Positions 44,815-64,000 are shown, counted from the first letter of the stretch. The stretch: 64,000 nt of DNA from an uncultured Veillonellaceae bacterium (GCA_963805085.1 CAWDTA010000005.1:1-64000), one strand, 5' to 3'. Notes: generated from the letters alone by a model not told the origin. Made by a program: numbers and translations.

Positions 44815-44825
44815 TCAAGCTCCCA

Positions 44826-45241: not shown

Positions 45242-45423
45242 ATGAGTACGAGTACAATGTCTTATTCCACGGCGGACTGCTTCGCACCGGAACGAATCAA
45301 AAATTAGAGATTAGCAATATTAATCGCGCGGACTTCCTCATCCAGGGCGTAGTTAACGGCAGTTATGGTGATTACGTGAAAATTTCCTGGGATCTGGGCG
45401 TCTCATCCACAATTATAAATAAT
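45242..45423 (+). pseudogene. GH62 remnant (first ~7 codons joined to the last ~50)
   Basis: ATGAGTACGAGTACA then HGGLLRTGTNQKLEISNINRADFLIQG; paralog of 37600-38529. Confidence 0.85.
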
Positions 45424-45550
45424 ATATCTTTCACTATACAAATATCGAAAAATCTGTACCGATATACGGGAAACACACAATTAAGGTAAATAGAAGAGTT
45501 CTTTGGATATATCGGTTTTAAAAAGTATCAAAAATTGAGGAGAAAATCTG

Positions 45551-46744: not shown

Positions 46745-46849
46745 AACTATAACATCAAGTCCAATCGAACTCAAAGTCGGAGCAAGAGGTTTCCTTAAAA
46801 AATCGTAAACAGCTTGAATATTGTTACCGATATGAGAGAGGTGAAACTT

Positions 46850-47391
46850 ATGACTATTAAATTAGAAAAGAAATCAAGCTCTTCAGTCAACGAATTAATG
46901 ATTAATTCAGCCGCTGAAGTAGAAAATGCTAACGTTTCGAAATCTATTGCCTTGTCAGCAAATAGTAGTTATAAAATTCCTGTTTTGTGTTATCACACCA
47001 TTGTTACAACTACAACAGGAACTTACCAAACAGGCTTGACAAGTTAAATGTAATCAAAATATTGAAATCTAGAGGACTGATTGATGGTATCGGCTGTCAA
47101 TCTCACGGTCTCGAAAATGTAAATGTCGCAAATGTTAAGTCAAAACTGGATAGACTTGCAGCTACAGGGTTATCAGTGTATATTTCAGAATTAGATCTCA
47201 ATATCGCAGATGATACTACCCAGAAAAATAAGATGCAGGAACTTTTTCCTGTAGTCTATGAACATTCTGCAGTAAAAGGTGTTACCTTATGGGGTTATGT
47301 ACAAGGCCATACATGGGTTACAAATAGTTATCTGTTGCGTAGTAACGGTACAGAAAGGCCTGCTCTTACTTGGCTGAAGCAGTATAAATAA
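46850..47391 (+). pseudogene. Fused remnants: CE4 5' end joined to GH10 3' end
   Basis: Near-identical to 38771-38965, then jumps at about 47047 to the equivalent of 41186-41523. Confidence 0.88.
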
Positions 47392-47399
47392 AAGCTTTT

Positions 47400-47585
47400 T
47401 CTAATGCTACACACGTTGAGTGTGAGAATATGACCAACGGTAGACCATATGCAGGAAATGGAACTACTCCTTCAGTACAAAGCTTAAACGTTTCCTTAGG
47501 TGAAGGGACTCAGCAAGTTAAGCTTCAGGTGGATGATGATACAGGGGCTTGGGATGCCTTTGTAGATTATTATCAAGTAAATTAA
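47400..47585 (+). pseudogene. Internally deleted CBM36-like fragment
   Basis: ATHVECENMT...GTTPSVQSLNV...VKLQVDDDTGAWDAFVDYY. Confidence 0.6.
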
Positions 47586-47705
47586 GTTAATCCATTATTC
47601 AAAAATAACAAGCAATAGATACAGTTACTATTGAAAGTAGCTGTATCTACTGAATTATGAAAATCTAGGTGTAGACAAAAATCAATTAGAAGTGGAGGTA
47701 AAACT

Positions 47706-49061
47706 ATGAATAAAGTATATAAGGTACTAAGTCTTTCGTTTGTTTTTGCTCTGTTTTTTTCAACAATGTGTCATGCGGATAACCCAATTGTACAAACTAT
47801 TTACACCGCTGATCCTGCACCTATGGTATATAATGGTACTTGTTATGTATACACTGGACATGACGAAGATGGCTCAACATACTACACCATGAATGAATGG
47901 CGATGCTATTCCTCAACGGACATGGTAAACTGGACAGATTGTGGTTCACCACTAGCCTACACTGCATTTAGTTGGGCAAAAGGCGATGCATGGGCCGGTC
48001 AGTGTATTCCTAGAAATGGTAAATTTTATTACTATGTTCCTATGACCCAAAAAACTGGTGGGATGGCAATAGGTGTTGCAGTATCGAACAGCCCCACCGG
48101 ACCGTTTACTGACGCTCTTGGATATCCGTTAGTTTCTACTGGCACTGGTGATATTGACCCCACAGTATTTATCGACGATGATGGGCAGGCCTATCTATAT
48201 TGGGGAAACCCCAACCTCCATTATGTAAAGTTAAATCAAGATATGATTTCCTATTCAGGAAGCATTGTAGAGGTACCTCTAACTACAGCGGGGTTTGGGG
48301 TACGTACCGGGGATTCTAAAAGGGCGACTTTATATGAAGAGGGTCCGTGGTTTTATAAGCGTAATAAAATATACTACATGGTATATGCAGCTGGAGGTAT
48401 ACCTGAATATATTTGTTATTCCACAAGCACCAGTCCTACTGGACCATGGACCTATAGGGGTGTAATCATGCCTACTCAAGGTGGCAGCTTTACAAACCAT
48501 CCAGGAGTAATCGACTTTAAAGGAAATTCCTACTTCTTCTATCATAATGGCGCTTTACCTGGGGGCGGAGGCTTCACCCGCTCGGTATGCATAGAAAAAT
48601 TTAAATATAATGCCGATGGTACATTCCCTACGATAAATATGACCACAACGGGTGTGCCTAGTGTCGGCAATCTAAATCCATATGTTACAACCGAGGCTGA
48701 AACAATTTGCTGGCAATCAGGTGTTGAAACAGAAAAATGCAGTGAAGGCGGAATGAATGTAGGCTATATCGAAAACGGGGACTGGATAAAGGTAAAGGGT
48801 GTTAATTTTGGTTCTGGCGCAGCATCCTTTGATGCAAGAGTAGCCTCAGCAACCAATGGTGGAAACTTTGAACTCCGCCTTGACAGCCCGACAGGGACTT
48901 TGGTTGGGACTTGTCCTGTTCAGGGTACTGGCGGTTGGCAGTCTTGGGTTACTAAGTCTTGTAATGTAAGCGGTGCAACAGGAGTGCATGACTTGTACTT
49001 GAAATTTACTGGCGGAAGTGGTTATTTGTTTAATTTGAACTGGTGGAAGTTTAATAACTGA
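47706..49061 (+). CDS. GH43 xylosidase/arabinofuranosidase with C-terminal CBM6
   Basis: Signal peptide; YTADPAP, AWAGQC, IDPTVF, YEEGPW; CBM6 IENGDW...DLYLKF. Confidence 0.9.
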   Translation: MNKVYKVLSLSFVFALFFSTMCHADNPIVQTIYTADPAPMVYNGTCYVYTGHDEDGSTYYTMNEWRCYSSTDMVNWTDCGSPLAYTAFSWAKGDAWAGQCIPRNGKFYYYVPMTQKTGGMAIGVAVSNSPTGPFTDALGYPLVSTGTGDIDPTVFIDDDGQAYLYWGNPNLHYVKLNQDMISYSGSIVEVPLTTAGFGVRTGDSKRATLYEEGPWFYKRNKIYYMVYAAGGIPEYICYSTSTSPTGPWTYRGVIMPTQGGSFTNHPGVIDFKGNSYFFYHNGALPGGGGFTRSVCIEKFKYNADGTFPTINMTTTGVPSVGNLNPYVTTEAETICWQSGVETEKCSEGGMNVGYIENGDWIKVKGVNFGSGAASFDARVASATNGGNFELRLDSPTGTLVGTCPVQGTGGWQSWVTKSCNVSGATGVHDLYLKFTGGSGYLFNLNWWKFNN

Positions 49062-49142
49062 AGTGTAATTTTCACACAAATGCGACTCTGTTTTTGTATC
49101 TCGAAGTTTAATTCATGAAAATTGGAAGGAGAGTAGATTATA

Positions 49143-50519
49143 TTGAAAATAGCAAAGAAATTGTTAATTATGCTTGTATTCTGTGTATTAGTTTCTATTT
49201 CAGGCACTGTCACTGTATTTGCAGATTACCCCTTATTTTACCAGAGATATACAGCCGATCCATCTGGCTTGGAGTATAATGGAAGATTATATTTGTATTG
49301 TTCCCATGATGTATACGATCCCAATAACCCGGGTTATATCATGAATGATATTACTTGTATCTCTACTGATGACTTAAAGAATTGGACCGACCATGGTGAA
49401 GTTTTCAAAGCGTCTGGCTGGGCTAATCTATCATGGGCTCCAGTTGTTGTTAATAGAAATAATAAATTCTATATGTATTATGGAAATGGTGCCAGCGGTA
49501 TAGGTGTTGCAGTGAGCAACAGTCCTGCAGGTCCATTTACGGATTCACTTGGAAAAGCATTGGTAAATGGTAGTACCCCCGGTGTAAACGCCCCTAGTGG
49601 TTTTTGGTGCTTTGATCCAGGTGTTTTTGTTGATGATGATGGGCAAGCGCATTTGTATTTTGGAGGAAATGGTGAGGGAAATACACGAGTAATCAAACTC
49701 GGCAGCGATATGATAAGTGTTGTCGGTTCAGCATCGCAGATTGTTGCTCCACGTTTTTTTGAAGATTCATGGATTCACAAATATAATGGGAAATATTACT
49801 ACTCCTATTCTACCGATTTCTCCCAAGGGGCTGCTGCGATAGACTATATGGTGAGTGACAAACCAATGACCGGATTCCAGTACAAAGGTACTGTATTGCC
49901 AAATCCTCCTTCAAATGACGGTAATAATAACCACCATTCAATATTTACATTCAAAGGAAATTGGTATATTGCTTATCATAACAGAGCTCTTGCCATCCAA
50001 AATGGTATTACCGATACGAATGCAAGAGTATACCAAAGAAGTGTTTGCCTAGATCGTTTGTATTATAATACGGATGGTACCATGCAGCAGGTTAAGTGTA
50101 CAACTGACGGCCTGTCCCAGCTTAAGTATGTAAATCCTTATACAACAAATGAAGCTGAAACAATGGACCAAGAATATGGTATCAATACAGAAGCATGTGG
50201 TGAAGGCGGTCGTGATGTAGCCTATATAGAAAACAATGATTGGATAAAAATAAAAGGTGTTAATTTTAGTTCTAATACAGCATCCTTTGATGCAAGAGTA
50301 GCTTCAGCAACCAATGGTGGAAATATTGAGCTTCGTCTTGATAGCCCCACAGGAACGTTAGTAGGAACTTGTGCTGTTCAGGGTACTGGCGGCTGGCAGT
50401 CTTGGGTTACTAAGTCTTGTAATGTAAGCGGTGCAACAGGAGTACATGACTTGTACTTAAAATTTACTGGCGGAAGCGGTTATTTGTTTAATCTGAACTG
50501 GTGGAAGTTTAGCAAGTAG
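49143..50519 (+). CDS. GH43 arabinofuranosidase with C-terminal CBM6
   Basis: Signal peptide (TTG start); YTADPS, SWAP, FDPGVF, FFEDSW; CBM6 nearly identical to that of the preceding gene. Confidence 0.9.
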   Translation: MKIAKKLLIMLVFCVLVSISGTVTVFADYPLFYQRYTADPSGLEYNGRLYLYCSHDVYDPNNPGYIMNDITCISTDDLKNWTDHGEVFKASGWANLSWAPVVVNRNNKFYMYYGNGASGIGVAVSNSPAGPFTDSLGKALVNGSTPGVNAPSGFWCFDPGVFVDDDGQAHLYFGGNGEGNTRVIKLGSDMISVVGSASQIVAPRFFEDSWIHKYNGKYYYSYSTDFSQGAAAIDYMVSDKPMTGFQYKGTVLPNPPSNDGNNNHHSIFTFKGNWYIAYHNRALAIQNGITDTNARVYQRSVCLDRLYYNTDGTMQQVKCTTDGLSQLKYVNPYTTNEAETMDQEYGINTEACGEGGRDVAYIENNDWIKIKGVNFSSNTASFDARVASATNGGNIELRLDSPTGTLVGTCAVQGTGGWQSWVTKSCNVSGATGVHDLYLKFTGGSGYLFNLNWWKFSK

Positions 50520-50606
50520 TTTTATCCCCCTTTCAATACCAGTAGCAAGGCTGCCTGCCTTGTCTACTGTATTGAAAGGGATTTATTATACAAGGAGGTA
50601 AGAGTT

Positions 50607-51427
50607 GTGTTAAAGAGTGTGTTGCCCGTGCCTGCCCTATCATTAACTTTAAATAACAACCTGGCTAAAACACCACCGATGGGGTGGAACAGTTGGAACA
50701 TTTTTCAGGGAAACATTAGTGAAAATCAAATCAAACAGATTGCTGATACAATGGTAAGTTCGGGAATGAAGGATGCAGGTTACGTATATCTAAACCTCGA
50801 CGATAACTGGATGGCAAATCCGGCACGTGATGCCAATGGGAACCTAAAGGCTGATCCTAAGCGTTTCTCGAGCGGTATGAAGGCTTTAGCAGATTATGTA
50901 CATTCCAAGGGTCTTAAGCTCGGAATATATGGATGCCGTGGGACTATGACATATATGGGTATTCCTCAAAGCGGAAGCCATGGGTATGAACAGAAGGATG
51001 CAAACACATTTGCTTCATGGGGTATTGATTATTTAAAATACGACAACTGGATGTACCTAATAGCTCCACTACCGACGGAACCCAGTTGATCCAGTGGGGA
51101 TATAGTGGAGGAAATAACCAAAGGTGGATCATTTCCCAAAACAGTGATGGCACATACAAGCTTAATAGTGCAAGCAGCGGAAAAATGGTGGACCTAGCTG
51201 ATAATTCATATAATGATGGTGCTAAAATTGATCAATGGGGTAACAACGGAAAGGATAATCAGAAGTGGTCAATCCTTAGTGTTGGCAACGGGGATTATAA
51301 GATAATAAATAAAGTTACGGGAAAAGCTCTGGTAGTTGAGGATGCATCAGCTGCCGATGGTGCTAAAATTACACAGTGGCAATATAATGCTTCACAAAAC
51401 GATCAATGGCAGATTGTTACCCCGTAA
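50607..51427 (+). pseudogene. GH27 N-terminal fragment joined out of frame to a ricin-type (CBM13) fragment
   Basis: TPPMGWNSWN, LNLDDNW, IDYLKYDN, then QW...NQRW/NQKW/DQWQ repeats in another frame. Confidence 0.8.
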
Positions 51428-51562
51428 TATTTCAACTGGAGTATGTCAAGCAACAGGTGGATCAACAAGTAACCTTGATGTAACTAATATAAATAATGGA
51501 GACTGGATTGCTGTAGGAAACGCTGACCTCGGTACCAAGGGGGCTAAGACGTTTACAGCAAA
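51428..51562 (+). pseudogene. CBM6 fragment (XynD-like)
   Basis: CQATGGSTSNLDVTNINNGDWIAVGNADLG...AKTFTAN. Confidence 0.6.
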
Positions 51563-51693
51563 TAGTACCTTAAGTTAAAAAATGACTTAAAATCCATGGT
51601 AAACAACCTATTATTCAAAAATAAGAAGTAATAGATTTGATTACTAATAGTAGTAACCAAATCAATAAAAAAATGTAACGAAGGTTTATAAAC

Positions 51694-52584
51694 ATGTTAA
51701 ATACGAGTAAAAGTAAGACTAAATGAATTGGAAATATATGGTACGACGGGAATGCACCTACTCACTTTGCTGACTATTGGAATCAGATAACCCCTGAAAA
51801 TGCCACTAAGTGGGCGTCATGTGAACCATAGCGGAGTGTATACAATTTCAATACAGCCAAAACAATGTACAATTACTGTAAGTCCAATGGAATGCCTTTC
51901 AAGTTCCATACATTAATCTGGGGAGGACAGTATCCAGATTGGGTAAACAATCTCTCCTCTGCAAATAGAAAAATAGAAGTTGAAAATTGGATTAAAAACG
52001 CTGGATCAAACTTTCCTAAGGCAGTTTTTGTTGATGTTGTAAACGAAGCTATGCCAGGGCATAATCCGCCTAGTTGGAAAAATGACATCGGTGGTGACAA
52101 CGGTCTTTATGGCACTGGTTGGGATTGGGTAGTGTGGTCATTTGAAAAAGCCCGCAAATATTTCCCGAATTCTAAGTTATTGATCAATGACTATAATGTT
52201 CTTTCAGATTACGGCAGCTGTATTGATACCTATATCACTGTAATCAATATATTGAAATCCAGAGGCCTAATTGACGGTATCGGCTGTCAATCCCACGGCC
52301 TTGAAACTGTAAATGTCGCAAATGTTAAGGCAAAACTGGATAGACTTGCAGCTACAGGGGTATCAGTGTATATTTCAGAATTAGATCTCAATATCGCAGA
52401 TGATACTACCCAGAAAAATAAGATGCAGGAACTTTTTCCTGTACTCTATGAACATTCTGCAGTAAAAGGCGTTACCTTATGGGGTTATATACAAGGCCAT
52501 ACATGGGTTACAAATAGTTATCTGTTGCGTAGTAACGGTACAAAAAGGCCTGCGCTTACTTGGCTGAAGCAGTATAAAAGCTAG
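51694..52584 (+). pseudogene. GH10 xylanase pseudogene (paralog of 40641-41534)
   Basis: Nonsense changes TGG>TGA (51724) and CAG>TAG (51829); RBS GGAGG>GAAGG. Confidence 0.9.
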
Positions 52585-52887
52585 TGCATGAGGAGAAAAG
52601 TGACAGGAAGAGAAATTTCGAAAAACTTATCTGATTTTGGTGTTTCATTTGCCCCACAATCATTTGTATATATTGATCGATTTTAGCCGCTTGCCAATTA
52701 GGTGGGCGGCTTTATTTAGTGACAAGAGGTGATAAAATACGAGCATAACAGAATGAGTTATAGAGCAGTACATAAAAAATACTGATGCAGAAATAAATTT
52801 TTTCATGGGATAAAAAGTATAGGACAAGTATCTAAAGATCATAAGAAATTTGAAAAGAGTTGTGAATATCTTATTTTGTCCTAGTCC

Positions 52888-52980
52888 ATTTAAAAAATCA
52901 ATTTTAATGAATGTATATAATTAGAAGCTAGTATACAAGAAAAAAATAATGAAAGGAGTTCTCTGAAATATTGGCTTCTA
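52888..52980 (+). promoter_or_regulatory. Conserved promoter plus 5'-leader hairpin module
   Basis: ATTTAAAAAATC...GAATGTATATAA then 13-bp stem TAGAAGCTAGTAT/ATATTGGCTTCTA. Confidence 0.6.
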
Positions 52981-53012
52981 AAAACCAAATAATTAAAATA
53001 GGAGGTAAAATT

Positions 53013-53972
53013 ATGTTAAACCTTAAAAGGAAAATTAAGTTTCTTTCTATGGCCACTTTGTTAATTTCATTGCTAGTTGTTAAGCCGGTTTCTGCTGCTT
53101 TTTGGGAACTCTCAGGTGATTTGAATTCGCACGATCCTAGTCTGATAAAAGATGGTAGTACATGGTGGTCTCCGAGTACGGGTACTGGATTGGCAATGAA
53201 ATATTCATCTGACGGTCTCGTTTGGCATCAAGGTACAAAGATATTTTCATCGGAACTTTCATGGTGGAGAACTTATGCTCCCAAAATGAGTACAAATGAT
53301 GTATGGGCTCCAGATATCAAATATTTCAATGGAAGATATTGGATGTATTATTCTGTATCGGAATTTGGTAAGAATAATTCAGCTATCGGTCTTACATCCT
53401 GTACAAGTGTCAATAAAGGGGATTGGAGGGACGACGGTATGGTTATATATTCAAAGTCAGGCTCTACCTCTTATAATGCTATTGATCCAAATCTTATAAT
53501 TGATGCCTCAAATATTCCCTGGTTAGTCTTTGGATCTTGGTTTGATGGTATTCATATCGTAAAGCTTGATTCTTCTACGATGAAACCTACAGGAAGTATA
53601 TATTCAATTGCAAAAAGAACTAATGGTATCGAAGGAGCGTGTATGATTTATACAAACGGCTATTACTACCTTTTTGCTTCAATTGACAAGTGTTGTGCAG
53701 GTGTTAACAGTACTTATAAAATTGTATATGGACGTTCAAAAAGTATTACTGGACCATATCTTGATAAAAATGGTGTAGATATGAAAAGTGGCGGAGGTAC
53801 TATTTTGGATTCAGGTAATAGCAGGTGGATAGGACCTGGTGGGCAATATGTATATAAAAATCGAAGTTCATGGGTAATAGCACGTCATGCTTATGATGCA
53901 AACAACGATGGCACAGCAACACTCTTGATTAGTGACCTTTCTTTTGATTCAAATAAGTGGCCAACTTATTAG
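53013..53972 (+). CDS. abnA: GH43 endo-1,5-alpha-L-arabinanase
   Basis: Signal peptide ending PVSA; SHDPS, VWAPD, NAIDP, FGSWFDGI, GIEGA; Bacillus AbnA-like. Confidence 0.88.
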   Translation: MLNLKRKIKFLSMATLLISLLVVKPVSAAFWELSGDLNSHDPSLIKDGSTWWSPSTGTGLAMKYSSDGLVWHQGTKIFSSELSWWRTYAPKMSTNDVWAPDIKYFNGRYWMYYSVSEFGKNNSAIGLTSCTSVNKGDWRDDGMVIYSKSGSTSYNAIDPNLIIDASNIPWLVFGSWFDGIHIVKLDSSTMKPTGSIYSIAKRTNGIEGACMIYTNGYYYLFASIDKCCAGVNSTYKIVYGRSKSITGPYLDKNGVDMKSGGGTILDSGNSRWIGPGGQYVYKNRSSWVIARHAYDANNDGTATLLISDLSFDSNKWPTY

Positions 53973-54524: not shown

Positions 54525-54541
54525 TTGGCATGGAAAATGCA
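54525..54541 (+). promoter_or_regulatory. Sigma54 (-24/-12) promoter of the PTS operon
   Basis: TTGGCATGGAAAATGCA (GG-N10-GC); a GAFTGA activator is encoded downstream. Confidence 0.75.
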
Positions 54542-54591
54542 TTAATAAATGGTTAGAAGTGCACTGGATTTATAAAGAAAGGAGGGATTGG

Positions 54592-55062
54592 ATGTTAAAT
54601 GTAAAGTTGCTAGACCCTGCGTTAATAGTAATTAATATGGATAAGAAAAGCAAGTATGATGTCATGAGAGAGTTGGCGAAATTATTGGTAGAGCAAGAGG
54701 CCGTGAAACCAAGTTACTTGCAGGCACTTGTTGAAAGAGAGGACATATATCCAACGGGATTACAAACTAAAGACATTGGCGTTGCTATACCGCATGCTGA
54801 TGTAAAACATGTATTGAAGCCAAGTATTGCAATTGCTACTATGAAAAATTCAGTGCAGTTTAATTCAATGGCTAATCCTAGTGATACACTTGATGTTAAA
54901 ATGGTATTTATGCTTGCACTAAAAGAACCAAAAAAACAATTGCAACTTCTTCAAGATTTAGTAGTATTGTTTCAATCGTCTGAACTAATAGAAAAAATGC
55001 TTAGGAGTGATGATGCACAAACATTTATTAATGTGGTAAATCAAATAGAACAAAACGGATAA
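54592..55062 (+). CDS. PTS EIIA, galactitol (Gat) family
   Basis: ERE..YPTGL...VAIPHAD. Confidence 0.9.
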   Translation: MLNVKLLDPALIVINMDKKSKYDVMRELAKLLVEQEAVKPSYLQALVEREDIYPTGLQTKDIGVAIPHADVKHVLKPSIAIATMKNSVQFNSMANPSDTLDVKMVFMLALKEPKKQLQLLQDLVVLFQSSELIEKMLRSDDAQTFINVVNQIEQNG

Positions 55063-55113
55063 AGAGTAAAACTAAAAAATTATATTAATTAGAAATAGGG
55101 AGGTGCTAGCGAC

Positions 55114-55419
55114 ATGGGAAAAGTAAAAATTATGTGTGTATGCGGAACTGGAATAGCTACGTCTACTGTTGTTAATAATGGAGTGTCTAATATTTGTAAA
55201 AAAAATGATTTCGCATATGATATTATGCAATGCAAAACTCTTGAGGTAAAGTCTAAATTAAATAGTTTTCGTCCAGATTTAATTGTTTCAACTACTCCAA
55301 TTTCTGCTGAGACCAACGTACCTATTATAAATGGAATTGCATTTTTATCTGGTGTAGGTTTGGACAATATTGAACAACAAATTGTTTCTGCATTAAAACA
55401 AACTCTGGGGGTGAAATAA
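55114..55419 (+). CDS. PTS EIIB, Gat family
   Basis: CVCGTGIATST phosphocysteine loop. Confidence 0.9.
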   Translation: MGKVKIMCVCGTGIATSTVVNNGVSNICKKNDFAYDIMQCKTLEVKSKLNSFRPDLIVSTTPISAETNVPIINGIAFLSGVGLDNIEQQIVSALKQTLGVK

Positions 55420-55420
55420 A

Positions 55421-56683
55421 ATGTTAGATATAATCCAATTTATCCTTGGATTAGGTCCGGCTGTTATGATGCCAATTATTATCACTATCTTGGGATTGGT
55501 TTTAGGACAAAGCTTTAGCAAAGCATTTAGAGCGGGTCTTATTATCGGTGTTGGTTTTGTTGGAATAAATATGGTTATTGGGCTGTTAATTAACACATTA
55601 GGTCCAGTAACACAAGCTATGGTTAAAAATCTTGGGGTCGAACTAGATATACTTGATGTTGGTTGGCCTATATCAGCTGCTGTAAGTTTTGGATCGGTAA
55701 TTGTACCAGTAATTATGCCGCTAATACTTTTATTTAATGTATTTTTGTTGGCAATCAATCAAACAAAAACAGCAAATGTTGATATCTGGAATTACTGGCA
55801 AATGCTGTTTTGTGGCGCAATAGTATATCATTCTACAAACCAAAACTGGTATTTAACTATCGCTGCAGTGTTAATTTGTGAGTTTGTAACTTTAAAACTT
55901 GCAGATATAACAGCACCTATGGTAGAAAAATATTTTGGGTTACCCGGTATTTCATTACCACATGTAGGGACCGTTGGGTGGTATCCCGTTGCCTATATCT
56001 TTAATAAGATTTTGGATAAAGTTCCGGGGATAAATAGTGTATATATTGATCAAAAAAAGGTACAAGAAAAATTCGGAATATTCGGAGAACCATTGTTTAT
56101 AGGCCTAGTTCTTGGATCTATATTAGCGATATTGGCTAAATATGATGCAGGGAAAATTTTGACTACTGGCGTTACTTTGGGTGCAGTAATGGTCATTTTA
56201 CCAAGAATGGTAGCAATCTTAATGGAAGGATTAATTCCATTATCTGAGGGGGCAAGAGAATTTTTGAAAAAAAGATTTCCGGGAAGAGAGTTCTACATTG
56301 GCTTAGATACGGCTATTGTAATAGGAAATCCGGCAGTTATGTCGACTGCTATCATAATGATTCCAGTTGCAGTATTATTGTCGTTGGTAGTTCCAGGAAA
56401 TCATTTTCTCCCATTTACAGATCTTGTTATGTTAACATTTATTTTAAGTTTTCCTGTTGCGGTAACGAATGGGAATATATTTAGGTCTATAATTATTAGT
56501 CTGTTAATTGTTCCGCTATGCTTATTAATTGCAACAGATTTTGGACCGGTTCATACAATAATGGGACATGCTGTTGGATTTCAGTTTCCTGAAGGAACGA
56601 CAACGATTAGTAGTTTATATGGAGGTACATTACAAATTCCATGGCTTATTTGGAAACCATTATCAATATTCTTTGGACACTAA
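55421..56683 (+). CDS. PTS EIIC, GatC family
   Basis: DILDVGWP, NVDIWNYW, LPRMVAILMEGLIPLSE. Confidence 0.92.
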   Translation: MLDIIQFILGLGPAVMMPIIITILGLVLGQSFSKAFRAGLIIGVGFVGINMVIGLLINTLGPVTQAMVKNLGVELDILDVGWPISAAVSFGSVIVPVIMPLILLFNVFLLAINQTKTANVDIWNYWQMLFCGAIVYHSTNQNWYLTIAAVLICEFVTLKLADITAPMVEKYFGLPGISLPHVGTVGWYPVAYIFNKILDKVPGINSVYIDQKKVQEKFGIFGEPLFIGLVLGSILAILAKYDAGKILTTGVTLGAVMVILPRMVAILMEGLIPLSEGAREFLKKRFPGREFYIGLDTAIVIGNPAVMSTAIIMIPVAVLLSLVVPGNHFLPFTDLVMLTFILSFPVAVTNGNIFRSIIISLLIVPLCLLIATDFGPVHTIMGHAVGFQFPEGTTTISSLYGGTLQIPWLIWKPLSIFFGH

Positions 56684-56779
56684 TATGTGAGAATTTTATA
56701 TGAGAAGACGGAGGTGTATCCTCGTCGCATTGATAATAAATGGATACACCTTACTAATTTTAGAAAAGAGGAATAAATT

Positions 56780-57826
56780 ATGCAAGCAATAGTATTTAAA
56801 GGACCTAAAGATTTTGAAATGCAAGAGATTCCGATTCCAGTATGTCCTACGGAAGGCATTTTAGTAAAGATTATAGCGGTGGGGCTGTGTGGATCTGATA
56901 TTCGAACTTTTGATGTTGGACATGGGAAAGTTACTCCTCCACAGGTAATAGGTCATGAAGTTGCTGGGGTAATAGAAGAAATAGGGAAGGGTGTTTCTGG
57001 TTTTTCAGTAGGGGACAAAGTCGCAATCAATCCGATTATTCCTTGTGGTCATTGTGAATATTGCAAAATGGGCTATGGAAACCATTGTAGAACTCTTGAG
57101 TTTTTAGGAACGACTATACCTGGTGGATATGCTCAATATGTGGCAATTCCAAAAGTGGCTTTGGTCAATAATTGTGTAATTAAAATAACTAGCGATTTAC
57201 CACTTGAATATGTTCCATTGGCAGAAACCACAGCTTCTGTAATTTGCGCGCAAAAAAATATGAATGTAACAAAGGGTGATACAGTTGTAATTTTTGGGGC
57301 AGGACCTATTGGTTGTTTGCATGCAGCTATTGCTAAAGCACGTGGAGCAAAAAAAGTAATTATGTCAGAAATCAATGAAACTAGATTGAATATTGTAAGA
57401 AAATTTAAAAGTATTGATGTTTTTGTAAATTCATCACAGAAAGATATTAATGAAGTCATATTGAGTGAAACCGGAAACTTAGGAGCGGATGTTGCTATTG
57501 TTGCTTGTCCGGTAGGAGCAGTCCAAGTACAAGCCATTAATGTGGTGAGAAAAAGAGGTAGAGTATGTTTCTTTGGTGGATTACCAATCAACAATTGTCA
57601 TATTAATCTCAATAGTAATAAAATTCATTATGATGAAATTGCTATTTTTGGTGCATTTGCGTATGATCCGAAGGAATTTATTGAAGCTTTTCATTTAATT
57701 TCAGAAGGAAAGGTACCAGCGGATCAGTTTGTTACGGATATATTGCCACTCAAGGACATTGCTAAAGGAATAGATATTATTAAAAATGGACTGGGTGTTA
57801 AAGTGGTTTTAAAACCTTGGGACTGA
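56780..57826 (+). CDS. Zn-dependent (MDR) polyol/sugar-phosphate dehydrogenase
   Basis: GLCGSD, GHE, CGHCEYC...C, GAGPIG. Confidence 0.9.
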   Translation: MQAIVFKGPKDFEMQEIPIPVCPTEGILVKIIAVGLCGSDIRTFDVGHGKVTPPQVIGHEVAGVIEEIGKGVSGFSVGDKVAINPIIPCGHCEYCKMGYGNHCRTLEFLGTTIPGGYAQYVAIPKVALVNNCVIKITSDLPLEYVPLAETTASVICAQKNMNVTKGDTVVIFGAGPIGCLHAAIAKARGAKKVIMSEINETRLNIVRKFKSIDVFVNSSQKDINEVILSETGNLGADVAIVACPVGAVQVQAINVVRKRGRVCFFGGLPINNCHINLNSNKIHYDEIAIFGAFAYDPKEFIEAFHLISEGKVPADQFVTDILPLKDIAKGIDIIKNGLGVKVVLKPWD

Positions 57827-57876
57827 GATCTTAACTTTAGGGTTAATTTTTATCAGTAATGAAGGGGGAATGGAAG

Positions 57877-58740
57877 ATGGCAGTTGATTTACACGTGCAT
57901 ACTATAGCGAGTAGTGACGGTGAATTTTCACCTTTAGAGATAGTTAAACTTGCACATGAATATCAACTTCAAGCAATTGCTATAACAGATCATGATACTA
58001 TTGACAGTGTTGATGAGGCTATTTATTTGGGAAAAGAATATAACGTAGAAATTATACCCGGCTGTGAATTTTCTTCGATATATAAAAATAGGTGGCTTCA
58101 TATTTTAGGATATTATATTGATTATCATAATAGCGATCTTATTAGCTTATGTAAAAAAGTAGAGACAGCAAGAGCAAATAATGTTGATGCGCAAATAGTT
58201 AAATTGCGTCAAGCTGGTTTCTATTTGGAAAAGGAAGAAGTTTTAGAGGATAGTTCAATTCCGTTGCCAATTTCTTTTGGAAAAGCTATATTTTTAGATT
58301 CAAGAAATAATGGTAACCAACTTATAGAAAAATATCGGCAAGAGAAAAACGGCATACTTACGTTTTGCCAAGAGTGGTTGATTTATGGACGACCATATAA
58401 TGCTATGCAATATTTTCCGAAGACCGAAGAGGTTATTAAGCTTATATTGCAATGTGGTGGTGTTCCTATTTTGGCACATCCTGGAGCTAGCTTACAAGAA
58501 GGTGAGGATGAATTAATTGTTGGTTTAATAAAGGAAGGGCTTGCTGGAATTGAAGTGTTTACAAATTGGCATAATGAAAATCAAGAAAAGCATTACCACC
58601 GTTTTTGTCGAGATACAGACATGATTGCTACTGCTGGCAGTGATTTTCATGGGAAAATTAAACCCAATATTTCATTTGGGCAGATAAAAAACAATGGGTA
58701 TGATATTGTTGAACTTTTGAAGTCCAAAATACTATTGTGA
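57877..58740 (+). CDS. PHP-family phosphoesterase
   Basis: DLHVHT..SDG, ITDHD, HILGY, LAHP, GSDFHG. Confidence 0.9.
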   Translation: MAVDLHVHTIASSDGEFSPLEIVKLAHEYQLQAIAITDHDTIDSVDEAIYLGKEYNVEIIPGCEFSSIYKNRWLHILGYYIDYHNSDLISLCKKVETARANNVDAQIVKLRQAGFYLEKEEVLEDSSIPLPISFGKAIFLDSRNNGNQLIEKYRQEKNGILTFCQEWLIYGRPYNAMQYFPKTEEVIKLILQCGGVPILAHPGASLQEGEDELIVGLIKEGLAGIEVFTNWHNENQEKHYHRFCRDTDMIATAGSDFHGKIKPNISFGQIKNNGYDIVELLKSKILL

Positions 58741-58869
58741 TTAAAATAATCTGTACAATATCTCCTCAAATATAATTTCGCTATTGAAAATATTTTCTAT
58801 ATTGATGTTATTTTCTTTTAATGTAAAATAAAAATTGAAGGGACCTTCAATAAGAGGAGCGGTCTACAA

Positions 58870-59847
58870 ATGCAGTCGTCGGTATACGATCAATCTACGT
58901 TTCTAGTATTTAAAGCCGCATATCTTTATTATTTTCAGGATAAACCACAAAATGAAATTGCTGATATATTGAATATATCTATATCAACAGTATCTCGTTT
59001 AATTAGAAAAGCTAAGCAAGATGGGATTGTAGAATTTGTAATTCGGAATCCATATATGGATTGTCTCGAAACAGAAGATCAAATCAAAAATAAGTTTAAT
59101 TTAAGGGATGTAATAGTCGTACCACCGATTAAAGAAATTGGGAACCATTTAGAAACCAAAGCTAATGCAAGAAAACTTGTAGCACTTGAAGGCGCACGAT
59201 ATGTTCAGCGAATTATTACCGAGAATGATGTTTTAGGACTTAGTTGGGGAAAAACAATGTATGATTTAATTCATTACTTAAATCCTTGTCAAAAAGTCAA
59301 TGCCAGTTTTGTTACAATGCATGGAAGTATTTCAGGGTGTCATCCAGATTTAGATGTGCTGGCATTAGGATCGCGGATATCTATGGCTTTTGGTGGACAG
59401 AATTATTCACTTTTAGCAGAAGGGTTAATGAGTAATGAAAAAATAGTGGCTTCTGTAAAAAACGAAAAATATGTCAATAAAATATTTGAAATATTCAAAC
59501 ACATAAGTATATCTTTGACAAGTGTAGGTGCTTTTTTCCCCAATGTAGATTCATTACTTTATAAACAAGGAGGATATCTTCTTGATAGTGAAATTCGTGA
59601 ATTGAAACAGAAAGGTGCAGTAGGTGATATAAGCCTTAGATTTGTTAATAGCCAAGGGAATGAATGCGATACATCCTTTAGAAATCGTACCATTGGAATA
59701 GAGTTAGACCTATTTAAAAAAATCAGAACAAAAATCATGGTTGCTTCTGGAGAATCCAAAGTCCATGCTCTAAAAGGAGTTTTGGCAGGTGGTTTAACTG
59801 ATATATTGATTATTGATTATGCTTTAGGAAAAGCAGTGTTAAATTAG
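58870..59847 (+). CDS. SorC/DeoR-family sugar-binding regulator
   Basis: AAYLYYFQDKPQNEIA HTH, GLSWGKTM, GAVGDI. Confidence 0.92.
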   Translation: MQSSVYDQSTFLVFKAAYLYYFQDKPQNEIADILNISISTVSRLIRKAKQDGIVEFVIRNPYMDCLETEDQIKNKFNLRDVIVVPPIKEIGNHLETKANARKLVALEGARYVQRIITENDVLGLSWGKTMYDLIHYLNPCQKVNASFVTMHGSISGCHPDLDVLALGSRISMAFGGQNYSLLAEGLMSNEKIVASVKNEKYVNKIFEIFKHISISLTSVGAFFPNVDSLLYKQGGYLLDSEIRELKQKGAVGDISLRFVNSQGNECDTSFRNRTIGIELDLFKKIRTKIMVASGESKVHALKGVLAGGLTDILIIDYALGKAVLN

Positions 59848-59927
59848 GTAAGGGATAGTAGTTAGTTTCGTGATGGGCCCGTCAAAAAACTAACTATTGT
59901 TTCAAAATATAAAAGGGGGTATTCACA

Positions 59928-61247
59928 ATGTATATTGATCCTTTATTTATGCAATTTTCTGATGGTATAGAGGAAGACAAATATGTAATTGCAACTTACT
60001 ATGTGGCAAATGCCAAATCAATGGAAGCTGTTAAATATGCTGCAGCATTAGCTGTTGAACAAACCACAGGTACGTGGATTTCAGTACCTGGCGAAACTCA
60101 TGAGGTAAGAGAAAAACATCTTGGACGTGTAGTTGGTATTTATGAAGTTCCTGCATACTCTGATTCATATCCTGCAGATCTTACTGAAAGACACTTTGTT
60201 TTACGATTGGCATTCCCAGCACATAATTTTGGCGCTCAATTTGCTATGATGTTTACAGCGGTAATTGGAAACATTTCGAGTATGGGAAAATTAAAATTGC
60301 TAGATCTTGAATTTCCTCGTAAATTTTTGAAGGAATTCAAGGGTGCTAAGTTTGGTGTAGAAGGAATACGGAAGCTGTTAGGCGTTTACGACAGACCTTT
60401 AGTAAATACTATGATAAAACCATGTATTGGTTTAAATCCTAAACAAACTGCTGAACTTGCCCATAAAATAGCACTTGGCGGGGTAGATATCATAAAAGAT
60501 GATGAATTAACAGCTAGTCCAGATCATTGTCCTTTGGTAGATAGAGTTAAAGCTGTTATGGCAGCTTTGAAATCTGCTGATGCAGAAAAAGGTGAAAAAA
60601 CGCTTTATACTTTTAATATTACAGATAGAACAGAAAAATTAAGAGAAAATGCTCTTCGCGCAATTGATGCTGGTGCAAATGCTTTAATGGTCAATGCTTG
60701 GCCGATTGGAATGGATGCTTGTAGAATGCTTGCTGAAGATCCTGAAATTAATGTACCTATTCTGTCTCATTGTGATATGCAAGGGGCATTATATGAATCA
60801 CCATGGTCTGGGATGTCTGCTAGTTTGGTTTGTTCGAAGTTACCTCGTCTTGCTGGTCTTGATATGGGGATTGTCTTAAGTCCTTATGGAAAATTCCCAC
60901 TTACAATGGATACATTTATTCAAGCAGGATATGCTTGTTTGACCCCATGGCAGCATATTAAACCAATGATGCCAATGCCTGGTGGCGGGACAACGCAAGG
61001 TCATATTGAAGAGCTTATAAACAAATTTGGCAAGGATGTTATTATAGCTGCTGGTGGTGCAGTAGTAGGACATCCTCAAGGAACTACTGCTGGTGGTAAG
61101 GCATTTAGGCAAGGTATTGATGCGGTAATGAAAGGGCAATCTTTAAAAGATGCTTGTCTAGATAGTAAAAATAAAGAACTCAAATCCGCTATTGATGCTT
61201 GGGGCGTTTACGGAGAAAAGAAAATCTTTGATCTTAAGGCCAAATAA
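59928..61247 (+). CDS. RuBisCO-like protein (Form IV)
   Basis: EQTTGTW, KPCIGL, GGVDIIKDDE, ILSHCD, PYGKF, PGGG, GGAVVGHPQG. Confidence 0.92.
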   Translation: MYIDPLFMQFSDGIEEDKYVIATYYVANAKSMEAVKYAAALAVEQTTGTWISVPGETHEVREKHLGRVVGIYEVPAYSDSYPADLTERHFVLRLAFPAHNFGAQFAMMFTAVIGNISSMGKLKLLDLEFPRKFLKEFKGAKFGVEGIRKLLGVYDRPLVNTMIKPCIGLNPKQTAELAHKIALGGVDIIKDDELTASPDHCPLVDRVKAVMAALKSADAEKGEKTLYTFNITDRTEKLRENALRAIDAGANALMVNAWPIGMDACRMLAEDPEINVPILSHCDMQGALYESPWSGMSASLVCSKLPRLAGLDMGIVLSPYGKFPLTMDTFIQAGYACLTPWQHIKPMMPMPGGGTTQGHIEELINKFGKDVIIAAGGAVVGHPQGTTAGGKAFRQGIDAVMKGQSLKDACLDSKNKELKSAIDAWGVYGEKKIFDLKAK

Positions 61248-61259
61248 AATTATAAAAAA

Positions 61260-61306
61260 TAGACAAGGAGAGCCTGGGTCATATACTCAGGCTCTCCTTT
61301 GTCTAT
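61260..61306 (+). terminator. Hairpin after the RLP gene
   Basis: TAGACAAGGAGAGCCTGGGT...ACTCAGGCTCTCCTTTGTCTA. Confidence 0.7.
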
Positions 61307-61689
61307 ACTAATATTAATAAATGTTTATATATGTAGAAATATGTCGAATTTTATTACTTATAATGTTATTATATATATGATAGAAGTACTTAGACAAGAG
61401 GAGCTATAAGGAATAAATAGGTTGTATTTAAATATCGCATAAAAAGATAGAAAATTTTGAATTTATAATAAAATTCAAAAGTGGACAATTATTTGAATAA
61501 AAAATTGCAAGAAGGTTTCATGGCTTTTTACATAGTATAGATGTAAAATTTTTAGTTAAAAACGTTAAATAATAGCAGTATGCTAACCTCAGAATAACCT
61601 CTTTTTCAGTCATTAAAAATGGAATGCAGTTCAATCAAGGTATTCATATTAAATTTGACTATAAGTAATAATTAGGGGGAGAATAAGTC

Positions 61690-64000
61690 ATGGAGAAAAA
61701 AATATCCCAAGTTATAAGTGAGGAAGATAAAAAAAATCCAATGACTGACCAAGAAATTTCTAACAAGTTATATATTAGTCGAAGTAAAGTAAGCAAAATT
61801 AGAAATGCTTTAGAAATACCTGAGGCACAGGAAAGAAGAGAAAATTTACTGCGTGAAGAAATAACAAAAATTATAAATGCAAATTCGGGTATTTCTGAAC
61901 GGCGTTTAACAGTGGAATTAAATAAAGCAGGTTTTCATATATCTAGAAATACTATAGCATCTATAGTAAATAGTATTTCTGATACTTTAGACCTTGCTAA
62001 ATATAAAAAATCAGATTTAGAAGAAAAGTCTAATAATGATTTACATAAGGATATTCAATCAATAGATGCGTTTGCCTCAATGATTGGTTGTAACAAAAGT
62101 TTACGAACAAAAATTGAACAGGCTAAAGCTGCGATTCTTTATCCACCCAATGGGTTACATACCTTAATTATTGGCTCACCAGGAGTTGGAAAAACAGAAT
62201 TGGCCGAAGCAATGTATAAATTTTCTTTAACTTATCAAGAATTAAGTTCAGATAACTATCCGTTTATCACTTTTAATTGCGCTGATTATGCTGAGAATCC
62301 ACAATTGCTTCTAGCACAGCTTTTTGGATATCGTAAAGGTGCATTTACTGGCGCTGAAAGCGATCAAGATGGTTTGGTAACAAAGGCTGATGGAGGTATT
62401 TTATTTCTTGATGAAGTCCATCGTTTGACTTCAAATGGCCAAGAAATGTTGTTTCAACTTATTGATAAGGGCCATTATAGGCGATTAGGAGAAACAAATA
62501 CAGTTCATAAGGCTAAAGTTATGATTATTGCTGCAACGTCTGAAGACATAGAAAAAAGTCTTTTGCTTACTTTTAGACGAAGAATACCAATGGTAATAGA
62601 ACTTCCATTATTGGCTGTACGAACTTTAGAAGAAAGATTAGATATGATTAGGAAGTTTTTTTTTCAAGAAACAAATGTGCTTAATAAAAAAATTATAGTG
62701 ACTACGCATGCTTTACGTATTTTATTGAGTTATAATTGTGTAGGGAATATAGGACAATTACGTTCAGATATTCAATTGTCCTGTGCAAAAGGTTTTTTAG
62801 AATATGTAGCTAGATGTGGTGAAGACGATTCTATCATTATTGATGTTCCAACACTACCTATTCATATTTCAAAAAGTTTATATAATATAGTTTGGGATAG
62901 AGAAAAAGTTAAAAAAATTATTTCAGATGATTTAGTTTTTCTACCTGGTGCTATAATTCCTGAAAAAATAAAAAAAAGCATTTATACATTTTCTAATGAA
63001 ATTTATAAAAATATTGAGGAAGAATACCAAGAATTACAAAAGCAAGGTCTATCTGATGAAATAATCAATCGTATTATTATGGATGCTTTAGAAACTAAAG
63101 TGAAAAAAATAATCAACCAGATTGGAGCAAATAAATATAATTTAGTCACACAAGATTTTAAGGCGATAGTGCGTCCCGAGGTTATTTTGTTAGTAGAAAA
63201 GATGCTTAACATAGTGAAAGCGAAACTAGGAGACTTCGATAATACATTGTTTTATTGTTTAGCAACGCACTTAAATATTTCAATTAATAGAATAAAAAGT
63301 GGTAAGTACAGTTCAACTCTTTGTCTTAATAATGTAAAACAGTATTGTACGCAGGAATATGAAGTAGCTATAGAAATGGCATCTCTGACAAAGCAGTATA
63401 TGGGTATTGATCTACCAGAGGAAGAAATCGGATTTATTGCAATGTATCTGAAAGCTAGTATCAGTAAAGATGTATGCTCTCAGAATACGATTGGAATAGT
63501 TGTTATATCTCATGGGCACGTTGCTCAAGGAATGGTTAGCGTAGCTAATCGATTTTTAGGTGTTGACTTAGTGCAAGCTGTTGAAATGTCACTTGATGAA
63601 AAAACAGAAGATGCTCTTGTAAGAACGATGGAAGTTGTAGCTAAAGTTGATCAAGGAAAAGGTGTTTTATTATTGGTTGATATGGGATCCTTAGATACAT
63701 TTGGAAATCAAATTACATTACAGACAGGAATAGCTACAAGAACTGTTACTAGGACGGATACTTTAATGGTTATTGATGCTATTAGAAAAGTTTTGTTACC
63801 AGAAAATGATCTTGATATGGTTGCTGATTCTTTGATAAAAGAAAAAAGTTTAAAAACATCTCAGTTTGAAGAAAGCAATAGAAGTACAGCAAAAGGATAT
63901 GCCGTAATTTGTTTTTGTTTAACTGGTCAAGGTACTGCCAATTATGTTGCTGATATAATAAGAAAAGAAATTCTTCAAATAGATAAAAATATAAATATTA
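61690..64000 (+). CDS. LevR/DgaR-type sigma54 activator with PRD and PTS domains (runs off the window; absent from the ORF track)
   Basis: MEKKISQVISEEDKKNPMTDQEIS; IIGSPGVGKTE, GAFTGA, LFLDEVH; PRD LATHL; EIIA-man ISHGHVAQGM. Confidence 0.9.
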   Translation, partial: MEKKISQVISEEDKKNPMTDQEISNKLYISRSKVSKIRNALEIPEAQERRENLLREEITKIINANSGISERRLTVELNKAGFHISRNTIASIVNSISDTLDLAKYKKSDLEEKSNNDLHKDIQSIDAFASMIGCNKSLRTKIEQAKAAILYPPNGLHTLIIGSPGVGKTELAEAMYKFSLTYQELSSDNYPFITFNCADYAENPQLLLAQLFGYRKGAFTGAESDQDGLVTKADGGILFLDEVHRLTSNGQEMLFQLIDKGHYRRLGETNTVHKAKVMIIAATSEDIEKSLLLTFRRRIPMVIELPLLAVRTLEERLDMIRKFFFQETNVLNKKIIVTTHALRILLSYNCVGNIGQLRSDIQLSCAKGFLEYVARCGEDDSIIIDVPTLPIHISKSLYNIVWDREKVKKIISDDLVFLPGAIIPEKIKKSIYTFSNEIYKNIEEEYQELQKQGLSDEIINRIIMDALETKVKKIINQIGANKYNLVTQDFKAIVRPEVILLVEKMLNIVKAKLGDFDNTLFYCLATHLNISINRIKSGKYSSTLCLNNVKQYCTQEYEVAIEMASLTKQYMGIDLPEEEIGFIAMYLKASISKDVCSQNTIGIVVISHGHVAQGMVSVANRFLGVDLVQAVEMSLDEKTEDALVRTMEVVAKVDQGKGVLLLVDMGSLDTFGNQITLQTGIATRTVTRTDTLMVIDAIRKVLLPENDLDMVADSLIKEKSLKTSQFEESNRSTAKGYAVICFCLTGQGTANYVADIIRKEILQIDKNINI

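Follow-up and report, generated by a model that had tools for sequence, protein, structure and literature searches.

A phosphotransferase-coupled operon with a RuBisCO-like protein of an uncharacterized subfamily in an uncultured Veillonellaceae bacterium

The stretch of DNA analyzed here, referred to as the window, is a 64,000-nucleotide sequence from an uncultured Veillonellaceae bacterium (GCA_963805085.1 CAWDTA010000005.1:1-64000), and it contains an operon that couples a carbohydrate phosphotransferase system (PTS) to a RuBisCO-like protein (RLP). The operon is one plus-strand unit (window 54526-61306) and consists, in order, of a sigma-54 element, the PTS components EIIA, EIIB, and EIIC, a Zn-dependent medium-chain dehydrogenase (MDR), a PHP-family phosphoesterase, a SorC regulator, the RLP, and a hairpin, with the gene for a LevR-type activator next in line. 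Our analysis confirmed the operon as real and intact and showed that it is conserved. Carbohydrate catabolism with an RLP takes a new, PTS-coupled form here. The RLP comes from an uncharacterized subfamily, and the operon points to a step in sugar-alcohol or sugar-acid breakdown that is not yet described. To our knowledge, few RLP reactions have been established, namely the MtnW enolase, the methylthioribulose-1-phosphate isomerase, and the apionate decarboxylase and transcarboxylase, along with an oxygenase of the hamamelose route, and most of the Form IV diversity has no assigned function that we know of. Keyword searches of one literature library returned no link between an RLP and PTS, SorC, UPF0261, or PF09370. 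Recent surveys of RuBisCO collapse or exclude RLPs (PMC13454268; PMC12999727).

Both large-subunit domains of the RLP (PF02788 and PF00016) score above their cut-offs, which places the protein in the RuBisCO large-subunit superfamily, and it is the sole RuBisCO-family gene found in the genome of the window. An alignment to MtnW of G. kaustophilus, together with 119 members of the family, gave the signature N115, K164-P-C166, K190-D-D-E193, H281, and loop-6 K322. The RLP thus keeps the carbamate/Mg motif KDDE (K190, D192, E193) and equivalents of K175 (K164), H294 (H281), and loop-6 K334 (K322), as the first-pass annotation of this DNA had described. The K175, K177, H294, R295, and K334 positions follow RuBisCO numbering, and five form III-like RuBisCO rows of our tree agree with it, their nine signature columns being N K K K D E H R K. 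The position that probably corresponds to H327 holds an isoleucine in the RLP. Residues needed for carboxylation of ribulose bisphosphate are lost at the K177 and R295 positions, where the RLP has C166 and C282 and the form III-like rows have Lys and Arg, as expected of a Form IV protein.

Conservation was counted over 119 of 121 family proteins, the two of 482 and 533 aa being excluded. K164, P165, C166, K190, D192, E193, H281, G321, and G352-G354 are invariant (119/119), Asn115 is present in 118 of 119, and the G-K-F around K322 is kept in at least 98%. Position 282 is Ser in 87 members, Pro in 22, Cys in 7, and Thr in 3. The two cysteines that had been singled out at the K177 and R295 positions are therefore both present in this RLP, but only the first is a family hallmark; the second is no family trait. 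A bona fide RuBisCO (forms I-III) was rejected as an identity for the protein, given a rubisco_III score of 247.5 against a cut-off of 497, the replaced K177 and R295, and an operon with no PRK gene (a genome-wide PRK search was not made); true carboxylase activity was also considered and rejected. Identity with OiaX, a 3-oxo-isoapionate-4-phosphate decarboxylase, was rejected as well, on a score of 213.5 bits against the NF042437 cut-off of 700 and an OiaX-like clade that lies elsewhere in the tree.

Judged from sequence, the RLP is not MtnW, a conclusion drawn from model cut-offs, a catalytic residue, phylogeny, and a genome in which MtnK and MtnA gave no match. Databases name relatives of the RLP as MtnW, the 2,3-diketo-5-methylthiopentyl-1-phosphate enolase of methionine salvage; MtnW models are its top NCBIfam matches, JGI labels several members of its family MtnW, and a protein atlas search returned generic RuBisCO or MtnW-named clusters only. 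MtnW/YkrW-clade proteins (PDB 2oek, 2zvi) also have the same fold and domain pair and are its best PDB sequence matches (2oek, E 4e-79), and they share with it the KDDE motif, the K175 and H294 equivalents, and the lack of a second phosphate site. Nevertheless, the RLP falls under both MtnW cut-offs (NF007095, 372.3 against 409; TIGR03332, 321.1 against 513.6), whereas P0149, a true MtnW representative that is ∼38% identical to it and served as a control, scores 677 and 705. Lys98 of G. kaustophilus MtnW, the catalytic base of that enzyme, aligns with Asn115 of the RLP, loop 6 of MtnW has Ser in place of Lys322, and the MtnW motif K-G-M-I-G (K-G-x-I-G) is replaced by K164-P-C166-I-G-L (K-P-C-x-G-L). 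In the Form IV trees, the MtnW proteins form a clade of their own (support 95 in FastTree and 98 in IQ-TREE) whose signature is K K x K D E H P S, and the RLP lies outside it; grouping with MtnW, together with the enolase activity, had been named beforehand as an observation that would refute the proposed role. The genetic context differs too, with mtnKABXD around MtnW and PTS, dehydrogenase, and SorC genes in the window. Models for MtnK (TIGR01767) and MtnA (TIGR00512) gave no match in the genome, although at 83% completeness this does not prove their absence, and Pfam and NCBIfam scans found no kinase, mtn, or PRK gene in the operon, in line with the first-pass annotation. Taken together, an MtnW-type enolase is very improbable here. 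One parallel may still be drawn, since the MtnW pathway has a separate phosphatase, MtnX, after the RLP, and the window has a PHP phosphoesterase that is probably co-regulated.

The RLP family is large. A word-indexed search with the RLP gave 1514 matches among 8000 scored candidates, in at least 120 clusters, and all of the listed ones are 62-92% identical to the RLP and about 438 aa long. Named sources are mostly Clostridia and related metagenome-assembled genomes, together with Lactonifactor longoviformis, Caproiciproducens faecalis, and Ca. Formimonas warabiya, and NCBI calls the members [quoted passage not shown]. The distribution is patchy, with an RLP match at E ≤ 1e-60 in 29 of 401 genomes of a phylum sample (counting G000, the genome of the window) and in none of the 12 from the window's own class. 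With clustering at 50%, an exhaustive search yielded 415 proteins (E ≤ 1e-30), in which the whole family is one representative. A FastTree phylogeny of 140 rows combined those of the 150 listed representatives that are 380-500 aa long, nine members chosen from the 120 family clusters, and the locus RLPs of at least 380 aa. L016, which duplicates L004, the 307-aa L030, and the truncated L014 were excluded. An IQ-TREE quick tree used 74 of these rows, with near-duplicates removed, and was rooted on the five form III-like rows.

The two trees agree. The RLP family is one clade (support 100 in FastTree and 99 in IQ-TREE), within which the RLPs of PTS-linked loci form a subclade (SH-like 97 in FastTree, SH-aLRT 90 in IQ-TREE) and those linked to UPF0261 genes form another (99 and 99). 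In IQ-TREE the PTS-linked subclade has eight rows, seven from the loci described below and one from another family protein. The OiaX-like clade lies outside and is represented by P0183 (524 bits against a cut-off of 700; best PDB match 3nwr). A short clade of the DeepYkr type, with 3qfw as its best PDB match and N K - K D H H P R as its signature, lies inside the radiation that holds the RLP family and MtnW, its position there not being fixed by the trees. Nor do they fix the deep branching inside the N-K-C radiation.

To place the operon in context, neighboring genes were classed through BLAST comparison with a Pfam- and NCBIfam-annotated panel, across 13 genome loci, 18 regions around the matches in the 401-genome phylum sample, and 12 metagenome loci. 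Eleven distinct PTS-type loci were found (the window, L037, L002, L003, L004, which equals L016, L005, L012, L014, L017, L018 with L052, and L044), and EIIA-EIIB-EIIC, SorC, and the RLP are present in every one. Their RLPs are 98% identical to that of the window in L037 and 92% in L002 and L003, the latter two being the cultured type strains Propionispira arboris DSM 2179 and P. raffinosivorans DSM 20765, which carry the same operon. The loci span several Bacillota lineages, including Negativicutes, Peptococcaceae, Anaerovoracaceae, and other Clostridia. These observations support a PTS linkage that is conserved rather than accidental. Within the RLP family, most of which lies beside UPF0261 and PF09370 genes, this linkage is a derived minority state.

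The first-pass annotation had asked whether the combination of PTS, MDR, and PHP recurs, and this holds in part. All 11 loci have a dehydrogenase, but the MDR is just one of three types (MDR in 5, a 2-hydroxyacid dehydrogenase in 5, and a GlpA-type in 1). A PHP gene of the window type lies in or beside 8 of the 11, with its own sigma-54-like element in L012, L017, and L018/L052; none lies within ±10 kb in L044, and the contigs of L005 and L014 are cut short. The type of EIIC co-varies strictly with the dehydrogenase, and the same SorC-RLP pair accompanies both. An EIIC of 420 aa (the type at window 55421-56683) always occurs with the MDR (5/5), and an EIIC of 480 aa (e.g., L012:5327-6772), ∼30% identical to the shorter type, occurs with the 2-hydroxyacid dehydrogenase (5 loci, usually with a GCAxxG protein) or with the GlpA-type (L004). 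Eight loci encode their own PtsI and HPr (the L017 operon gave no HPr match, and the L014 contig ends before ptsI), and the window, L037, L002, and L003 do not. Accessory genes vary. Downstream of the RLP, L004 has genes for GlpA, a GlpC-like protein, and enolase, and L012 and L017 have a FucA/AraD-like gene of the class II aldolase family (188-192 bits); a FadX-like CoA-transferase heads the operon in L005, and in L044 an unannotated ORF takes the position of this CoA-transferase behind a similar promoter.

In the window itself, the first-pass annotation had listed eight genes, and open reading frame (ORF), Pfam, and NCBIfam analyses recovered all of them in place, intact, and on the plus strand (Table 1). 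The co-directional ORFs run from 54514 to the end of the window with gaps of 1 to 129 bp, and an AT-rich spacer of 442 bp follows the RLP. The sigma-54 promoter that had been proposed was found as TGGCATGGAAAATGCA, 52 nt ahead of the ATG at 54593, the likely start of EIIA; the alternative start, a TTG at 54514, would overlap the promoter element. One-mismatch matches to the sigma-54 consensus number 19 in the window against 10 expected from shuffles, roughly 2-fold. The case for the promoter therefore rests on its conservation and on rpoN, which is present in the genome. A similar element lies ahead of the first operon gene in 10 of the 11 PTS-type loci, the equivalents of the window's being upstream in L002, L003, L004, L005, L012, L017, L037, L044, and L052/L018, and none was seen in the 800 bp available upstream in L014. 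At the other end, folding showed the hairpin 3′ of the RLP stop codon to be more stable than chance (0/200 shuffles equally stable); having no clean U tract, it was missed by a simple terminator scan and was located by eye and by folding. The scan gave no convincing plus-strand terminator inside the EIIA-to-RLP unit, including before sorC, and Rfam returned no family at gathering score, and no riboswitch or leader, between 53000 and 64000. A search of sequencing runs listed no RNA run that contains this DNA, each of the nine runs listed sharing at most 0.10 of the sampled words.

Table 1. Features of the RLP operon and the adjoining activator gene, in window coordinates.
Feature	Position	Strand	Basis
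Sigma-54 type -24/-12 promoter element TGGCATGGAAAATGCA	54526..54541	+	One-mismatch consensus match; orthologous operons alike
PTS EIIA (Fru/Mtl/Gat class)	54593..55062	+	PF00359, E 2.6e-32; ATG behind AGGAGG
PTS EIIB (Lac/Cel/Gat class)	55114..55419	+	PF02302
PTS EIIC, Gat/Ula superfamily permease	55421..56683	+	PF03611, E 4.7e-93
Zn-dependent medium-chain dehydrogenase (MDR)	56780..57826	+	PF08240 and PF00107
PHP-family metal phosphoesterase	57859..58740	+	PF02811; HxH motif
SorC/DeoR(Bsu)-type sugar-phosphate regulator	58870..59847	+	PF04198 (178.9 bits) and helix-turn-helix
RuBisCO-like protein (Form IV), uncharacterized subfamily	59928..61247	+	PF02788 (42.5 bits) and PF00016 (169 bits)
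Terminator-like hairpin closing the operon	61259..61306	+	21 pairs, -34.2 kcal/mol, z -7.8
LevR-type sigma-54 enhancer-binding activator	61690..64000, on to 64635 in the genome (981 aa)	+	Sigma54_activat, PRD, EIIA-Man

The PTS has the domain set of galactitol-type systems (EIIA_2, PTS_IIB, EIIC-GAT), yet the components fall below the models for galactitol specificity, with 75 bits against 139 for GatA on EIIA, 61 against 95 for GatB on EIIB, and 443 against 542 for TIGR00827 (EIIC-GAT) on EIIC. The MDR has the catalytic residues C37/H59/E60 and a structural four-cysteine site (C89/C92/C95/C103); its best models, Tdh (179 bits) and IolM (171 bits), are all under cut-off, as is GatD (128 against 550). 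For the PHP protein, the nucleoside-bisphosphate phosphatase model gives 124 bits against 400. PDB sequence searches returned only generic relatives for the MDR (threonine, sorbitol, and xylitol dehydrogenases) and generic PHP phosphoesterases for the PHP protein, from which no specificity is readable. Since no PTS component, MDR, PHP protein, or regulator reaches a curated NCBIfam equivalog cut-off, no substrate can be read from the gene names. The general components are encoded elsewhere in the genome by ptsH-ptsI, directly upstream of which a 673-aa ORF contains an HPr-like domain (G000:C2:1033171-1033425, L051).

Two regulators accompany the operon. The first, with an N-terminal helix-turn-helix and a C-terminal PF04198 domain, belongs to the SorC/DeoR/CggR type (219 against 420 for the B. 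subtilis DeoR model), and a homolog is present in 24 of 27 family loci, mostly adjoining the RLP. The second is by sequence a LevR-type sigma-54 activator, with AAA+, PRD, and EIIA-Man domains, a -24/-12 promoter element before the putative target operon, and rpoN in the genome. An ortholog lies downstream of the RLP in 7 of the 11 PTS-type loci (the window, L003, L012, L017, L018, L037, L044); the contig ends first in L002, L005, and L014, and none is present on the L004 contig. A common block 3′ of LevR in three loci (L012:15374-19919, L017:1-3698, L018:14680-19000) encodes a DUF2148 ferredoxin-domain protein, a second HPr, and TadZ-like, T2SSE, and T2SSF pilus-type proteins; the window is without it and has a D-Ala-D-Ala carboxypeptidase in its place. 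Another long ORF of the genome, 996 aa in length, has at its N terminus a LevR-like segment resembling a sigma-54 DNA-binding domain (G000:C2:518919-519077, L035).

Outside the PTS-type loci, the same RLP family is found in other company. In the UPF0261-type clusters of anaerobes, the RLP shares 64-68% identity and the invariant residues with that of the window, and PF09370, UPF0261, and PF09370 genes come after it in all seven remaining genome loci (L006-L011, L013); the PF09370 proteins are PEP-hydrolase-like TIM barrels. The same order is kept in all eight metagenome loci that continue past the RLP (L038-L043, L045, L047), as far as the contigs reach. SorC is often adjacent, and SorC with a HisJ-type PHP gene is often upstream; in contrast to the window, PTS and dehydrogenase genes are missing. 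A sister clade of RLPs (53-56% identity; L019-L028) has the same trio, to which 8 of 10 loci add a ComB-like phosphatase (PF04029) and 7 of 10 a GlpP-like antiterminator (PF04309). The gene order there (e.g., L022:9334-14519, L023:5495-11975) is GlpP-like, RLP, PF09370, ComB-like 2-phosphosulfolactate phosphatase, UPF0261, and PF09370. Good sigma-54-type elements, TGGCACCGTTATTGCG and TGGCACGGTATTTGCA, were noted at L019:4924 and L020:3655, a few kb from UPF0261-type RLP clusters and before unannotated genes on the other strand. Three more distant arrangements were also recorded. An FGGY kinase lies immediately upstream of a distant N-K-C type RLP in L032:7635-10607. L033:3787-15050 contains an ABC transporter, a xylose-isomerase-like TIM barrel, an FGGY kinase, the RLP, a GFO/IDH/MocA oxidoreductase, an Fe-ADH_2 resembling glycerol-1-phosphate (G1P) dehydrogenase, and a GlpA-like gene, and L031:4831-10593 contains a triosephosphate-isomerase paralog, PF09370, UPF0261, amidohydrolase_2, and the RLP.

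One member of the UPF0261 family, MarK, is a demonstrated ATP-dependent kinase (PMC12624787). The contexts therefore fit a pattern in which the phosphate donor alternates between the PTS, a UPF0261-family protein, and an FGGY kinase, with SorC and the RLP held constant. The first-pass annotation had assigned phosphate supply in the window to the PTS, and this agrees with the alternation. Its core idea gains support because a phosphate-ester device, combined in the PTS loci with an oxidoreductase and in most loci with a phosphoesterase, matches the general logic of known RLP routes, in which the Mg/carbamate center enolizes a phosphate ester that has a carbonyl next to it.

From this gene content, we consider it probable that the operon is a substrate-inducible catabolic unit for a sugar alcohol or sugar acid, and we infer its chemical steps as follows. 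LevR and sigma-54 would turn the operon on, and SorC would add control through a sugar-phosphate intermediate. The Gat/Ula-family PTS, working with the general EI and HPr, would import the compound and phosphorylate a primary hydroxyl, and the MDR would then oxidize a secondary hydroxyl of the phosphate ester to a ketone. The RLP would bind this keto-phosphate at the P1 phosphate site, which it has kept, and at the Mg2+/carbamate center (K190, D192, E193), and K164 and H281 would help form an enediolate. For the outcome, our preferred but tentative guess is decarboxylation of a β-keto-acid phosphate, such as a 3-oxo-tetronate-4-phosphate-like compound, to a triose or ketose phosphate. The PHP phosphoesterase, presumably part of the same regulon, would act on a phosphate ester of the route.

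Several observations lean toward the handling of a carboxylate, because a 2-hydroxyacid dehydrogenase is present in about half of the PTS loci, because a CoA-transferase heads the L005 operon, and because the family keeps Asn115 and loop-6 Lys322. The equivalents of these two residues are also kept in the RuBisCO-like and OiaX-like clades, whereas MtnW-clade (K...S) and 3qfw-like (N...R) proteins lack the loop-6 Lys. A product at the triose or ketose-phosphate level is suggested by the GlpA, GlpC-like, and enolase genes of L004, the class II aldolase genes of L012 and L017, and the triosephosphate-isomerase paralog of L031. We regard it as unlikely, though worth stating, that the RLP carries out genuine C-C carboxylation or decarboxylation on a monophosphorylated C4-C6 keto compound fed by the PTS or a UPF0261-family kinase; the idea arises because the features that in RuBisCO hold the carboxylate derived from CO2 are kept (Asn at N123, loop-6 Lys, and the carbamate/Mg site) and the second phosphate site is lost.

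Some findings weigh against the decarboxylation route. Two pairs of EIIC and dehydrogenase, with EIICs only ∼30% identical, feed the same RLP, so either there are several substrates or the RLP substrate is further downstream than assumed. The UPF0261-type clusters have no obvious dehydrogenase or transporter, and a phosphatase within a PTS route is energetically odd. The MDR, PHP, and EIIC proteins score under every curated equivalog cut-off, and their names do not reveal specificity. The aldolase genes of L012 and L017 give 87-100 bits against the OtnC cut-off of 250 and resemble FucA/AraD more. The residue argument for a carboxylate, finally, compares only four clades of sequences and leans on the presumed roles of N123 and K334 in RuBisCO.

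Nearly as likely as decarboxylation, and a serious possibility, is that the RLP isomerizes or epimerizes a ketose phosphate that stems from a pentitol or tetritol, performing a 1,2- or 1,3-proton shift or an inversion at C3 with no release of CO2. The PTS would yield a polyol phosphate, the dehydrogenase a ketose-1-phosphate, and the RLP would shift the carbonyl or invert C3, presumably much as the R. rubrum-type RLP acts on methylthioribulose-1-phosphate. All characterized RLP substrates known to us have a ketone next to a CH2-O-phosphate, which counts in its favor, as do the FucA/AraD-like genes after the RLP in L012 and L017. The neighbors of related RLPs, including GlpA-type, G1P-dehydrogenase-like, and GFO/IDH/MocA dehydrogenases, FGGY kinases, and the triosephosphate-isomerase paralog, have a polyol-like character, a parallel being the erythritol route of Brucella, where the SorC-type protein EryD is the regulator. 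Clostridial sigma-54 activators containing PRD domains have also been reported to control pentitol PTS operons (PMC6615313). On the other hand, the 2-hydroxyacid dehydrogenases in five loci and the CoA-transferase of L005 indicate a carboxylic acid, and both clades of the isomerase/enolase type are without the loop-6 Lys that the RLP family retains.

It is also conceivable, but improbable, that SorC and the RLP form an independent two-gene module acting on an endogenous metabolite, as they would in the UPF0261-type clusters, and are a chance guest in an otherwise complete PTS/MDR/PHP pathway. The pair is the sole one common to all context types, it is preceded by a 129-bp gap with a weak sigma-70-like match (9/12), and no transporter lies near the UPF0261-type clusters. 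However, across 11 loci of several Bacillota lineages it occupies an internal or terminal position in a PTS operon, keeps its place with two EIIC types and three dehydrogenase types, and has no plus-strand terminator ahead of sorC. The PTS-linked RLPs form one subclade, and in L004 the RLP directly follows EIIC-HPr, with sorC divergent. A methionine-salvage role was rejected, being already contradicted by the cut-offs, Asn115, the clade, and the missing MtnK and MtnA matches.

Among known systems, the operon resembles the PTS operons for galactitol (Gat) and L-ascorbate (Ula), with the same EIIA, EIIB, and EIIC classes and, as in gatD, a Zn-dependent MDR paired with a phosphorylated product. 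The Ula route uses a keto-acid phosphate decarboxylase and a class II aldolase-family epimerase, a logic that is plausible here too. The window differs in having no tagatose-bisphosphate aldolase and no UlaD/E/G homolog, the RLP taking the place of the downstream enzyme, and in its control by LevR/sigma-54 and SorC. The OiaX-like clade (N K S K D E H R K) shares with the RLP the Asn at the N123 position and the loop-6 Lys, but has Arg at the R295 position where the window family has Cys, Ser, or Pro. The phosphate of the OiaX routes comes from a kinase, presumably of the DUF1537 family, instead of a PTS. In the D-apionate pathway, a sugar-acid route with OiaX-type RLPs and the related transcarboxylase/hydrolase, a kinase gives the phosphate and a dehydrogenase gives the ketone (PMC6302742, citing Carter et al., 2018). 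The first-pass annotation had suggested a branched substrate such as apionate, hamamelonate, or carboxyarabinitol, but nothing we found points there, and the OiaX model gives 213 bits against 700.

The RLP family is tightly conserved and common in anaerobic Bacillota, including gut and digester organisms, and its PTS-linked subclade offers a direct experimental handle, since the substrate must be an extracellular carbohydrate and the route has only three enzymes. It can be tested in cultured Propionispira strains, and solving it would give a first clue to the UPF0261/PF09370 clusters around the same enzyme. Should the RLP prove to carry out C-C carboxylation or decarboxylation, it would represent a widespread, undescribed anaerobic route for plant-derived sugar acids and a living intermediate between RLP and RuBisCO chemistry.

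Upstream of the operon, a run of hemicellulase genes (44002-53972) encodes a GH30 glycoside hydrolase, two GH43 enzymes with CBM6 carbohydrate-binding modules, and a GH43 AbnA-like arabinanase. Many ORFs in this stretch are fragments of their families, including GH10 pieces at 46987-47391 and 51865-52584, an N-terminal melibiase piece at 50607-51089, a ricin-lectin piece at 51086-51427, and a C-terminal MCRA piece at 44002-44814. This is either a decaying glycoside-hydrolase island or the result of frameshift errors in the assembly, and the adjoining RLP operon is intact.

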